Assembly: GCA_035250975.1 (NCBI GenBank)
Contig: DATFEP010000067.1
Location: 44,144-108,143 of the forward strand
DNA from: Nitrososphaeraceae archaeon
GTDB lineage: Archaea > Thermoproteota > Nitrososphaeria > Nitrososphaerales > Nitrososphaeraceae
Reading direction: 5' to 3'
Length of the DNA stretch: 64,000 bases
A program made the translations under genes and the position numbers. Of the stretch, positions 2,371-15,581 are shown one piece after another (position 1 is the stretch's first letter; the number at the start of each line of letters is the position of its first letter). Under the pieces are notes generated by a model. That model was given only the letters and a program-made list of their open reading frames with translations, was not told the origin of the DNA and searched no databases.

Positions 2371-3738
2371 TTAACCCAAACCGAAACGTCTCAACATTCC
2401 ATGCATCTGTCTGCCTTTTGCCTGTTTCATCATACTTTTTGAATTATTGTATTGTTTTATCATTTCTTTAACATCATGTTCCATTATACCTGATCCTCTT
2501 GAAATTCGTTTTCTCCTTGAATCATTGATCACATTTGGATCTTTTTTTTCCTCTTTTGTCATTGATTGTATAACAAATCTCCATTTTTCAATCTTTGTTT
2601 GTAAATTATCTAGTTGTTCATCTTTTACCATACCAGAAAGTCCTGGAAGATTTTCCATTACATTTCTAAATCCCATTTTACTTACATTTTCCATTTGAGA
2701 ATAGAAATCTTCTATAGTCATTCTACCGCCTAACAATCTTTTAGCTTGGTTTGCGTCTGCTTCCAATTCAAGGCTTTTTGCCATTTCTAACAATGCCTTG
2801 ATATCACCCATCCCCAATAAGCGCCCTACAAACCTAGTTGGAGAAAATAATTCTAAATCATCAATCCTTTCACCAGTTCCGATAAACATAATTTTAGCTC
2901 CAGTGGCTGCAGAAGCTGCTAAAGCACCTCCACCCTTCGCAGTTCCATCTAGTTTAGTGATCAAAATTCCTCCCACTGGAGCGGCATCGTGAAATGCTTT
3001 TGCCTGATTGTATGCCTGCTGTCCAATAGTACCATCTATTACTAGGATGACTATATCAGGATTAATAACATTATACATATCATTCATTTCCTGTAATAAT
3101 CCTGACTCTTCTTTGTGTCTTCCAGCTGTATCTATAATGATTACATCATAATCGAGATTATCATAATACTTTAATCCATTTCTCACTATAGAAACAGGAT
3201 TCTTATTATCTTCTTCTCCATAAACTTCCACTTTAATTTTAATGCTATTCATCTTCAATTGTGTAAGAGCGCCAGGTCTCCACGTATCTGCACCTATAAT
3301 AGCTGTTTTATATCCATGCCTGGTTAACCATCTCGCAAGTTTAACTGTACAAGTAGTTTTTCCGCTTCCCTGAATACCAAGCATCAAAATGATATTCTTC
3401 TTCCCAGGTTTAAAATTTAGAGATTCTTTTTCGTCTGAATAAGATTTCTCTATATTAGTTATGCTTGTTCCGCTATATCCAAGTAAAGAAGCAATTTCAT
3501 TATAAAGTATTGTAATAATATGATCTTTTCTTGATAATCCTTTTGGAGACTGTTCATTCAAGGCACGCTCTTTTAAATTCTTTGTAATAGAAAGCACCAA
3601 TTTAACATTAATATCGGATTGCAATAATGATCTTTGGATATCCTTAGAGAGAGAATCAATCAATTCTTCATTTATATCCGATGCTCCTACTATTTTCTTG
3701 AGAGCGCTTCTTAATCCGGTCCGTAGATTATCAAACAT
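2371..3738 (-). CDS. srp54: Signal recognition particle protein SRP54
   Basis: GIQGSGKTT, DTWRPGA, DTAGRH, TKLDGTAKGGGALA, M-domain SRRKRISRGSG. Confidence 0.97.
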   Translation of the reverse strand: MFDNLRTGLRSALKKIVGASDINEELIDSLSKDIQRSLLQSDINVKLVLSITKNLKERALNEQSPKGLSRKDHIITILYNEIASLLGYSGTSITNIEKSYSDEKESLNFKPGKKNIILMLGIQGSGKTTCTVKLARWLTRHGYKTAIIGADTWRPGALTQLKMNSIKIKVEVYGEEDNKNPVSIVRNGLKYYDNLDYDVIIIDTAGRHKEESGLLQEMNDMYNVINPDIVILVIDGTIGQQAYNQAKAFHDAAPVGGILITKLDGTAKGGGALAASAATGAKIMFIGTGERIDDLELFSPTRFVGRLLGMGDIKALLEMAKSLELEADANQAKRLLGGRMTIEDFYSQMENVSKMGFRNVMENLPGLSGMVKDEQLDNLQTKIEKWRFVIQSMTKEEKKDPNVINDSRRKRISRGSGIMEHDVKEMIKQYNNSKSMMKQAKGRQMHGMLRRFGLG

Positions 3739-4496: not shown

Positions 4497-4880
4497 TTAC
4501 ATAGTGGAGAGTGAATTATGCTGCTGAATAGTTGCGTAATTGGGCTGCTCCGATATCTCTGGGAACAATCCTGCTAATTTATCATGTTTCTCTAGAAAAT
4601 CTGCTCCCATAGACGTCGTCTTGTACAAACCAGTAACTTTGGAATATTCCATTAAACCTTGTTTTACTGCTAATCGCAAATATCGAGTTATTTGAGAATG
4701 AGACACAGACGCCTTATTCATTATAGTTGTTTGATATTCCCATTTATTGGCAGCACAACGAATTATAGATGCAATTATTCCTATATCAGTTCTATTTTTC
4801 AAAGAATCTTTACCTCTTTCTTCATTGTATGAATGCTGAATGATAGAATTCAATTTAGATAATAAAAAAACCTTTGACAA
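4497..4880 (-). CDS. Winged-helix transcription regulator (archaeal HTH_45-like)
   Basis: R..I.IIASI....TTIMNKASVS..QI.RYL....GL......YKTT.MG..FL pattern. Confidence 0.75.
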   Translation of the reverse strand: MSKVFLLSKLNSIIQHSYNEERGKDSLKNRTDIGIIASIIRCAANKWEYQTTIMNKASVSHSQITRYLRLAVKQGLMEYSKVTGLYKTTSMGADFLEKHDKLAGLFPEISEQPNYATIQQHNSLSTM

Positions 4881-4938
4881 TTATTAACGACAAAATTGTT
4901 TGTTAAATTAAAACCGATAAAAAGAAATAATAAAAATT

Positions 4939-5028
4939 AATCAAAACACCTCAGCAACTCATAATCTTCGTCACATACAAATTACAATGTATCGGACGGC
5001 TCTTCCTATACTTCATCGGCATTTGATT
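4939..5028 (-). ncRNA. Box C/D 2'-O-methylation guide sRNA (23S PTC guide plus tRNA-Met anticodon guide)
   Basis: Minus strand: stem AATCAAATGCC / C ATGAAGT (5016-5010) / guide ATAGGAAGAGCCGT / D' CCGA / hairpin / C' GTGACGA / guide AGATTATGAGTTG / D CTGA (4954-4951) / stem GGTGTTTTGATT. Confidence 0.85.
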
Positions 5029-5149
5029 TGTTTATTATCTTTAATTTAAATTGATCATTAATAAAGACTGCTCTTTTGGACAACTACTTTAAATACTGAT
5101 TTTTTTTTATTCCAATCCGACGTGTAGAAATTCGGCAGTTATAGTTGAT

Positions 5150-5601: not shown

Positions 5602-6654
5602 ATGATCTCTGCAAGGATAGTTAAAACAAATGAATCTCTGATAATTGAAAATATGCAGCAACCAAAACCTGTACATACACAAGTTTTGGTACGAGTTAAA
5701 GCTGCTGGTATATGTCATAGTGACCTACACTTGTGGGAAGGAGGATACATTGGTTCTGGCGGAAAAATTATGAAGGTAGAGGATAGAGGAGTTCGTTTCC
5801 CATTAACACCAGGCCATGAGGTGGCAGGTGTCGTGGAGGACATAGGAGAATCAGTGTCATATTTTCAAAAAGGAGACAGCGTATTGGTTTATCCTTGGAT
5901 TGGGGATGAAATATGTTCGTCATGCAAGTCAGGGGATGAACATTTATGTGATAAACCTAGAACATTAGGAATTTATCAAGATGGAGGCTACTCAGACTTA
6001 ATTCTTGTTCCTAATTATAAATACCTAATAAAATTAGAACAAGATGATTTTGATTCTGCAGCTTCTCTTGCATGTTCTGGGTTAACTGCTTATACAGCAA
6101 TAAAGAAAGCAGCTGCAACTCCCAATGATAATTTGGTAATCATTGGAGCTGGCGGTTTGGGATTGATGGCAGTGCAGATAGCAAAATCAATCACTAATTC
6201 CAAGATTTTGGTTGTAGATGTGGACAATGAGAAATTAAATGAAGCGAAGAGATTAGGTGCAGATCACATTATCAATTCCGTAGAGACAGATCCTATCAAG
6301 AATGTAAAGGATTTAACAGGAGGACAGGGTTGTGAAATAGTAATAGATTTTGTAAATAACAGTAAAACCGCTCCGGTAGCTATGGATAGTTTGAGAAAGA
6401 GAGGAAAATATATAATGGTAGGGCTATTCGGAGGATCATTAGAATTGAATCTCCCATTGGTTCCCTTGAGAGCATTTAATATAATGGGCGCTTATACTGG
6501 AAGAATTACAGACTTGGTTGAACTAGTATCACTTTATAAAAAAGGAAAGATAAGTTCAGTTGTATCAAAGAAATACAAACTGGATGCCGTGAATGATGCT
6601 CTCCAAGATTTAAAGGACAGAAAAATTATTGGAAGAGCAGTATTTAATCCTTAA
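5602..6654 (+). CDS. Zinc-dependent (MDR) alcohol dehydrogenase
   Basis: GICHSD, GHEVAG, structural Cys cluster CSSC...C, GAGGLG. Confidence 0.93.
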   Translation: MISARIVKTNESLIIENMQQPKPVHTQVLVRVKAAGICHSDLHLWEGGYIGSGGKIMKVEDRGVRFPLTPGHEVAGVVEDIGESVSYFQKGDSVLVYPWIGDEICSSCKSGDEHLCDKPRTLGIYQDGGYSDLILVPNYKYLIKLEQDDFDSAASLACSGLTAYTAIKKAAATPNDNLVIIGAGGLGLMAVQIAKSITNSKILVVDVDNEKLNEAKRLGADHIINSVETDPIKNVKDLTGGQGCEIVIDFVNNSKTAPVAMDSLRKRGKYIMVGLFGGSLELNLPLVPLRAFNIMGAYTGRITDLVELVSLYKKGKISSVVSKKYKLDAVNDALQDLKDRKIIGRAVFNP

Positions 6655-15506: not shown

Positions 15507-15581
15507 GCCGGAGTGGCTCAGCTTGGTTAGAGCGTTCGACTCATAATCGAAAGGTCGCGGGCTCGAATCCCGTCTCCGGCA
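15507..15581 (+). tRNA. tRNA-Met(CAT), probably elongator, intronless
   Basis: GCCGGAG/CTCCGGC acceptor; TTCGA-CTCATAA-TCGAA anticodon arm; no A1-U72 or three G-C pairs of an initiator. Confidence 0.92.

Follow-up and report, generated by a model that had tools for sequence, protein, structure and literature searches.

The window, by which we mean the whole stretch of 64,000 nucleotides analysed here, carries on its minus strand a box C/D sRNA gene of about 79 nt (about 5023-4945), whose boxes and stems can be read directly. The gene is flanked by a winged-helix gene (Pfam HTH_45) and a zinc alcohol dehydrogenase gene, which leave an intergenic gap of 721 nt (Table 1). The sRNA gene stays within a few kb of the SRP54 gene, both here and at the orthologous loci, which come from several families of this archaeal order. 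On the plus strand lies a tRNA(CAU) gene that probably encodes the elongator tRNA-Met; the two RNA genes are ~10 kb apart in this genus, in conserved synteny. In some genomes of genus g5 (G180:C277, G222:C9 and G165:C6; loci L150, L152 and L153) the sRNA is found ~90 nt from the tRNA-Met gene. An earlier, sequence-only reading of this DNA had proposed a box C/D sRNA with two guides, and both guides and all boxes were indeed read on the minus strand. A TATA-like element is found ~20-27 nt before the 5′ end of the sRNA. Judged from the usual spacing of archaeal TATA elements, which is the basis of this reading, TTTAAATT is a candidate promoter of the sRNA.

Table 1. Coordinates of the sRNA gene, its neighbours and its predicted tRNA target in the window.
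Feature	Position	Strand	Sequence or detail	Basis
SRP54 gene	2371-3738			
Winged-helix gene	4497-4880	-		Pfam HTH_45
Box C/D sRNA, whole	4945-5023	-		Direct reading; BLAST homologs; weak Rfam C/D snoRNA matches over 4949-5021; two metatranscriptome contigs
Stem I, 3′ strand	4945-4950	-	GGUGUU	Homolog parse
D box	4951-4954	-	CUGA	Direct reading and homolog parse
D spacer, 13 nt	4955-4967	-	AGAUUAUGAGUUG; core GAUUAUGAGU at 4957-4966	
C′ box	4968-4974	-	GUGACGA; NUGANGA forms in relatives	
D′ box	4992-4995	-	CCGA; CUGA in most relatives	
D′ spacer, 14 nt	4996-5009	-	N2-N11 at 4997-5006, GGAAGAGCCG, pairing with 23S CGGCUCUUCC	
C box	5010-5016	-	AUGAAGU	Register set by stem I, 3-nt bulge GAU and sheared GA
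Stem I, 5′ strand	5018-5023	-	AAUGCC; pairs with 4950-4945	
TATA-like element	5043-5050	-	TTTAAATT, A/T-rich	Direct reading
Zinc alcohol dehydrogenase gene	5602-6654	+		
tRNA(CAU), probably elongator tRNA-Met	15507-15581	+	No intron	ARAGORN and Rfam
Target stretch C29-C40 of tRNA(CAU)	15537-15548	+	U33 at 15541, C34 at 15542	
T loop of tRNA(CAU)	15558-15574		CUCGAAU	

Stem I comprises 6 bp, at least five of which are kept in 90 of 91 homologs, and several pair types occur at each position, with compensatory changes. The three-base bulge GAU overlaps the C box. Another C-box register, CCGAUGA, was dropped because only AUGAAGU leaves a 3-nt bulge after the compensation-supported stem I. Positions 5 and 7 of the adopted C box depart from the consensus RUGAUGA, and the versions found in relatives are AUGAUGA, AUGAGGU or AUGACGU. 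Taken together, the terminal C and D boxes, stem I, the 3-nt bulge, the GA and the CUGA suggest a design compatible with a K-turn. The sRNA has features that mark archaeal box C/D sRNAs, namely terminal C and D boxes with such a K-turn, internal D′ and C′ boxes and, for both guides, guide-target pairing of at least 8-10 bp, with 10 bp for D′ and 11-12 bp for D, and a Watson-Crick pair at the fifth nucleotide from the box (N+5). The loop between the D′ and C′ boxes has 17 nt in the window's sRNA and is free in length and sequence across relatives. At 14 nt (D′) and 13 nt (D), both spacers are above the archaeal norm of 12 nt, which is the length of the D spacer in 48 of 91 homologs. Longer spacers are described as still functional in vitro (PMC7229835).

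RNA-library contigs from soil or rhizosphere (two studies) cover the sRNA at 4762-5022 (run X18) and at 4832-5010; both continue into the downstream gene, and DNA may be present in libraries of this kind. Upstream of 5023 no contig cover was found in four RNA runs, which is a gap in the contigs and not evidence for a start site. The contigs hint at transcription from the predicted start, possibly jointly with the downstream winged-helix gene. The sRNA may also be cut from the leader of that gene, as the contigs run from the sRNA 5′ end into it. Of the protein partners, L7Ae has a gene in this genome; neither fibrillarin nor Nop5 turned up in the assembly, whose completeness is 94.6%. Among relatives, fibrillarin lies above the cut-off in 39 of 40 genomes (23 of 24 congeners) and Nop5 is found in five out of five. 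Because the two genes are adjacent in relatives, including the nearest one, a single unassembled stretch may explain their joint absence. Of the rRNAs, the assembly (G000) lacks the 23S altogether and covers the 16S only up to about nt 750.

The D′ guide is complementary to 23S rRNA. Positions 2-11 of its spacer form 10 Watson-Crick bp with CGGCUCUUCC in the 23S of four relatives (G019, G016, G025 and G044). Its N+5 nucleotide is C2580 of G019, or C2510 in E. coli numbering, where N5 forms a G-C2510 pair just 3′ of G2505/U2506, according to an alignment to the annotated E. coli 23S whose anchors were checked. The distance from the D′ core to box D′ is constant in 92 of 92 homologs. The idea that a single RNA is aimed at both a site of the peptidyl-transferase centre in 23S and a tRNA anticodon finds its counterpart in these complementarities, which would direct the D′ guide, with its 10 bp, to the neighbourhood of G2505/U2506 and the D guide to tRNA-Met.

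At gathering and curated thresholds, Rfam matches nothing except tRNAs and offers no family for the sRNA. In a permissive Rfam scan the near-matches over the sRNA are mainly to C/D snoRNA families, the best of them to SNORD49 (RF00277; E = 6e-4). Here the D′ guide and its boxes align (AUAGGAAG-GCCGUC-GA), whereas the D halves are unrelated, and the 24.8 bits stand against a gathering score of 37, which makes the sRNA a non-member by the Rfam rule. SNORD49 presumably guides the 28S cytidine equivalent to E. coli C2510, and the likeness may reflect merely a common conserved rRNA target. A literature search pairing SNORD49 with C4426 gave no match.

The 12 nt directly before box D (GAUUAUGAGUUG) pair with CGACUCAUAAUC in the anticodon arm of the window's tRNA(CAU), 12 out of 12 and without a mismatch, with U-G30 as the one wobble. 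Such a pairing with positions 29-40 of tRNA-Met, including the single G-U, had been predicted before. The core of the guide is complementary to A31-C40, while N2 (U4956) faces G30 and N1 (G4955) faces C29. Counted from box D, N5 is A4959, which faces U33, and N6 is G4960, which faces C34; the earlier count, with U33 by strict N+5 and C34 at an offset of one nucleotide, is therefore reproduced. The sRNA thus has an element antisense to the tRNA-Met anticodon stem-loop, as tRNA-Met wobble guides do, where the identity of the tRNA as an elongator is one that we infer.

Initiator tRNAs are marked by an A1-U72 pair and by three G-C pairs in the anticodon stem. Two CAU tRNAs are present in the assembly, and the one in the window is without these hallmarks; no tRNA with the initiator-type three G-C pairs in the anticodon stem was found in the assembly. 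The other CAU tRNA (C40:12837) has its acceptor stem and T arm in common with tRNA-Ile(GAU), which is not true of the window's tRNA. Because of this resemblance, the other CAU tRNA is more likely tRNA-Ile2 and the window's tRNA is, purely by the comparison of stems, probably the elongator tRNA-Met. Its T loop has C and not U at position 54, as does every family copy read. The anticodon arms (26-44) of tRNA-Met(CAU) and tRNA-Ile(GAU) (G000 C23:41793-41866) are identical except for nt 34, and any factor reading this arm meets both tRNAs.

The specificity of the D guide was assessed by shuffling, against 7,201 nt of stable RNA made up of 33 tRNA candidates of this genome, the 23S of G019 and the 16S of G016. 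A match with no mismatch and at most one G-U arises in 9 of 5000 shuffles of the 12-mer, and the corresponding figure for the perfect 10-mer core is 15 of 5000. The real D guide has exactly one such match in the tested RNA, the window's tRNA(CAU). Genome-wide, the 10-mer target word has 10 occurrences, close to the chance expectation. The closest competitors are tRNA-Ile(GAU), mismatched at nt 34, and the second CAU tRNA of the genome, whose pairing includes two G-U and one mismatch. Since the assembly has no 23S of its own and only about half a 16S, rRNA rivals were sought in the rRNA of relatives. A better-matching rRNA target, which had been named in advance as evidence against the tRNA pairing, did not appear in the 16S and 23S of four relatives; sites with at most one mismatch are confined to one with seven G-U pairs and one with four. 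On these relatives' rRNA, such G-U-rich or mismatched sites were ruled out as targets of the D guide. A search of the rest of the assembly for a second guide to the tRNA-Met loop found none, and two other pattern matches have no flanking boxes. By complementarity, the anticodon arm of the probable elongator tRNA-Met is by far the best predicted target of the D guide.

A BLAST search with the sRNA recovered homologs from other genera as well as from 21 of 24 congeners. A pattern made of the D′ guide and ATTATGAG matches 143 of 201 genomes of the family, in 15 of 18 genera, and a reversed control pattern matches in 2 genomes. Because this pattern presupposes the D guide, the search was repeated with the D guide left free and only the D′ guide and the 3′ end fixed, and a match was obtained in 133 of 201 genomes. 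Conservation of the guide in relatives had been set beforehand as a test of the proposal, and the guide proved to be kept: counted by eye, 125 genomes from this search carry the tRNA-Met guide. A further count by eye covered 128 published genomes with the sRNA, once three unpublished genomes and three matches to something other than the sRNA had been set aside. GAUUAUGAG (also given as GATTATGAG) is exact in 111 of them. Another 12 have GGTTATGAG, in which an A to G change opposite U39 yields G-U39 and keeps the pairing, and two (G031 and G034) have variants that mismatch at or next to the target pair. The remaining three, all from genus g12 (G092, G126 and G035), have an unrelated D guide, …GAUAUCAGUAU…, on the same scaffold and with the same D′ guide; their tRNA-Met arm is unchanged.

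The guide G opposite C34 is invariant in all but one homolog. On the side of the tRNA, none of the 48 copies read from the family differs in the anticodon arm with the target stretch. Because this arm never varies, two-sided covariation between guide and tRNA is impossible, and the changes in the guide are one-sided. N1 varies freely (A, G or C) against the invariant C29, as expected for an unpaired position 1. Outside the family, an ortholog in G044 (L033, L070) keeps the 23S guide and has UACCAGUUCAAU as its D guide; the tRNA-Met ortholog of this genome carries an insert of ~20 nt just 5′ of the anticodon, probably an intron. In family f6, G057 (L030) combines the two guides in a single RNA whose box D is CAGA, and in G041 (L031) a tRNA-Met-type guide with a UUGA box occupies a locus separate from the 23S guide. 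Both of these homologs have poor D boxes and read as the 12-nt form.

The spacing between the D guide core and box D is variable in the family. A gap of 1 nt between the core and box D is found in 48 of 91 parsed homologs, from seven other genera; these have a 12-nt spacer, pairing at positions 2-11 and C34 at N+5, which is the arrangement of tRNA-Met wobble guides. In the other 43 parsed homologs the gap is 2 nt and the spacer 13 nt, with U33 at N+5, as in the window, where C34 comes to N+6. One further homolog, with a CGGA box, reads as the long form. Among the genomes of the D-guide-free search, 81 have the short and 44 the long form. The concern that the register is shifted or the site unusual was thus well placed: by strict counting the site is U33 in this genus, and about half of the homologs in the family have the C34 register. 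All 21 parsed homologs of this genus (g1) are of the long form, as are those of g3, g4, g6, g36, g38 and g39, and those of g8 and g11 in the D-guide-free search. The short form characterizes g5, g9, g10, g13 and g37 and predominates in g2 (12 of 14) and g35 (11 of 13). Named records with the short form include Nitrososphaera sp. AFS and Ca. Nitrosopolaris.

Between box C′ and the core, 88 of 92 homologs have a single nucleotide, so the change in length is confined to the side of box D. On an SRP54 tree of 30 rows, the gap has switched at least four times. The backbone of this tree is unresolved and 9 of its 27 inner branches are open, and switches were accordingly counted from well-supported sister groups only. 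Such groups that differ in form are g13 (short) and g39 (long), as well as groups within g2 and within g35; g3 (long) and g9 (short) form another pair, with weaker support. Most of these changes resemble slippage by one base within a short T or C run. These lineages constitute a natural experiment, with dozens of genomes that have the same tRNA, 10-nt core and boxes and a spacer of either 12 or 13 nt. A pair of the two forms could reveal whether box D alone sets the ruler and whether U33 can carry a methyl group.

A mechanism may be proposed from the anatomy and complementarities of the sRNA. Together with L7Ae, Nop5 and fibrillarin, the sRNA would form a methyltransferase particle. Its D′ guide would dock on 23S beside the peptidyl-transferase nucleotides and select C2510 (E. 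coli numbering). The D guide would dock on the anticodon arm of elongator tRNA-Met, open the stem and bring the 33/34 step into the active site. Canonically for the family, with a 12-nt spacer and 10 bp at positions 2-11, wobble C34 would be selected, giving the known Cm34. With one extra nucleotide between the invariant core and box D, the rule-based target in this genus would become U33. We infer both assembly of the particle and methylation. It is highly probable that the two-guide box C/D sRNA is genuine and that it places the C34/U33 step of elongator tRNA-Met in the methyltransferase active site. For the nucleotide that is methylated in this genus, U33 falls a little short of an even chance, C34 is a contender that we rate lower, and the case that neither is methylated, or only inefficiently, is distinctly less probable.

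The methylated site would be decided by how the particle measures. According to work on guide RNPs in vitro, the particle measures from box D, leaving position 1 unpaired and reading ~10 bp; surplus spacer nucleotides are looped out on the 5′ side, and the methylation site stays where it is when the extent of pairing is altered (PMC7229835). In yeast, insertion of a U in front of box D′ displaced the site by one nucleotide, in agreement with this rule (PMC5389607). With the measurement starting at box D as published, Um33 is expected in this genus. The tentatively preferred explanation is that the ruler is strict, with 13-nt lineages methylating U33, the U-turn nucleotide, and 12-nt forms C34, and with either of these, or any methyl group in the loop, serving the cell. 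In the long form N5 is an A that faces U33 in Watson-Crick geometry, and with N2 paired to G30 positions 2-11 still make up 10 bp. The form is fixed in the parsed congeneric homologs with an intact core, which argues against decay, and site shifts driven by indels are reported for conserved guide families of Pyrobaculum (PMC6009581). However, modification of U33 is described as very rare (PMC7668247), and none among the matches listed in a literature search for 'Um33' concerns tRNA. Loss of Cm34 in half of the family would also be odd, given an otherwise frozen tRNA and guide core. That this genus and eight other genera of the Nitrososphaeraceae really methylate U33 is accordingly a tentative proposition. 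If true, the nearly universal and almost never modified U-turn nucleotide would here have its first guide-directed ribose methylation, and evolution would have alternated several times between Cm34 and Um33 on a tRNA-Met that is otherwise frozen.

A somewhat less probable explanation is that both forms modify the same site. The perfect 10-bp core (A31-C40) would then lie in the protein channel alike in both, with the extra nucleotide looped out or absorbed into stem II and C34 at an effective N+6, and a natural terminal C/D motif with a canonical CUGA would break the N+5 rule. The constant distance between C′ and the core, the restriction of all variation to the box-D side and a core that is never lost across the gap switches are what such a mechanism leads one to expect. 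A frozen core with a free linker on the side of box D would fit a duplex positioned by caps at both ends, and caps that measure duplex length from both ends are indeed discussed (PMC7229835); among the parsed homologs, no sequence feature was found that separates the two forms as this cap model needs. Yeast guides show a one-nucleotide displacement of the site that can depend on the stem II sequence and on the final nucleotide of the guide (PMC5389607), and in the window's sRNA pairing of N1 and N2 with the C-box residues U7 and A8 would be possible. However, an extended stem II was rejected as the cause of the one-base shift, since the same pairing potential exists in 12-nt forms (genus g13) and is absent in some 13-nt forms (g3), and so does not track the spacing. 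Box D is, moreover, a canonical CUGA, N1 is a purine and not C, and the published insertion did shift the site (PMC5389607). Improbable, by comparison, is a D guide that binds tRNA-Met or its precursor in this genus without methylating it efficiently, either as a chaperone that folds or protects the tRNA or as a tolerated relic kept by some other constraint. A register that varies freely around a pairing core that does not would agree with this, and chaperone roles of C/D guides have been discussed (PMC6009581, PMC7994747). Yet both registers retain Watson-Crick pairing at N+5, selection on the boxes and the K-turn is clear, and another constraint, for example an overlapping gene, is not visible in the intergenic gap. 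It is very improbable that the match to tRNA(CAU) is incidental and that the guide serves tRNA-Ile2(CAU), tRNA-Ile(GAU), a missing rRNA segment or an mRNA. The arm of tRNA-Ile(GAU) is the same apart from one nucleotide, the other CAU tRNA pairs over 29-38 with two G-U, the assembly is without its own 23S and half of the 16S, and of the two CAU tRNAs the window's is only probably the Met one. Against this, the window's tRNA is the only perfect match, the complete 16S and 23S of relatives have no credible site, and the near-invariant G opposite C34 fits a CAU anticodon and not GAU.

Among the known systems, haloarchaeal sR-tMet, going by the title of Joardar et al. 2011, reportedly acts on an intron-containing pre-tRNA, whereas the tRNA gene in the window has no intron. 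Compared by description only, the two RNAs are alike in that sR-tMet is a box C/D guide for Cm34 in the anticodon loop of elongator tRNA-Met (PMC4033218, PMC6601510); they differ in that the second guide of the window's sRNA serves 23S and that its register is U33 in this genus. More generally, wobble guides for tRNA-Met have been described in haloarchaea, Pyrococcus and humans (PMC4033218, PMC7994747, PMC6601510). The C/D sRNA of Pyrococcus is likewise an archaeal guide to the first anticodon (wobble) position of tRNA-Met (PMC7994747), though it comes from a hyperthermophile of a different phylum and was also compared by description only. Human SNORD97/SCARNA97 are antisense to the anticodon stem-loop of elongator tRNA-Met and select C34 at the fifth position; unlike the archaeal RNA, they are eukaryotic and intron-encoded, and two RNAs cooperate (PMC6601510). 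Rfam gave no match of the window's sRNA to SNORD97-type families.

Precedents also exist for the variable register. Within Pyrobaculum sRNA families, such as sR127, a 1-nt indel moves the predicted site while the pairing region is kept; those shifts are in rRNA (PMC6009581), whereas the shift described here affects a tRNA anticodon loop, where it has arisen several times between U33 and the wobble base. The C′/D′ motifs of yeast U18, snR48, snR13 and U24 are similar in that the methylated position can be displaced by one through stem II and the final guide nucleotide, but they are eukaryotic, internal and have non-consensus boxes, whereas the terminal box D in the window is canonical (PMC5389607).

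Cm34 of tRNA-Met is held to prevent misreading of AUA (PMC7668247). The G+C content of this genome is 30.6%; because AUA codons are expected to be common at such a composition, discrimination between AUG and AUA should matter here, and a guide for tRNA-Met would plausibly be useful for it. A literature search, in which the string 'C/D' could not be matched, found no catalogue of C/D sRNAs for soil ammonia-oxidising archaea. Judged from its sequence, the sRNA represents a new lineage, the Nitrososphaeraceae, for the tRNA-Met anticodon guide known from haloarchaea, Pyrococcus and humans, and would extend this guide to mesophilic soil ammonia oxidisers.
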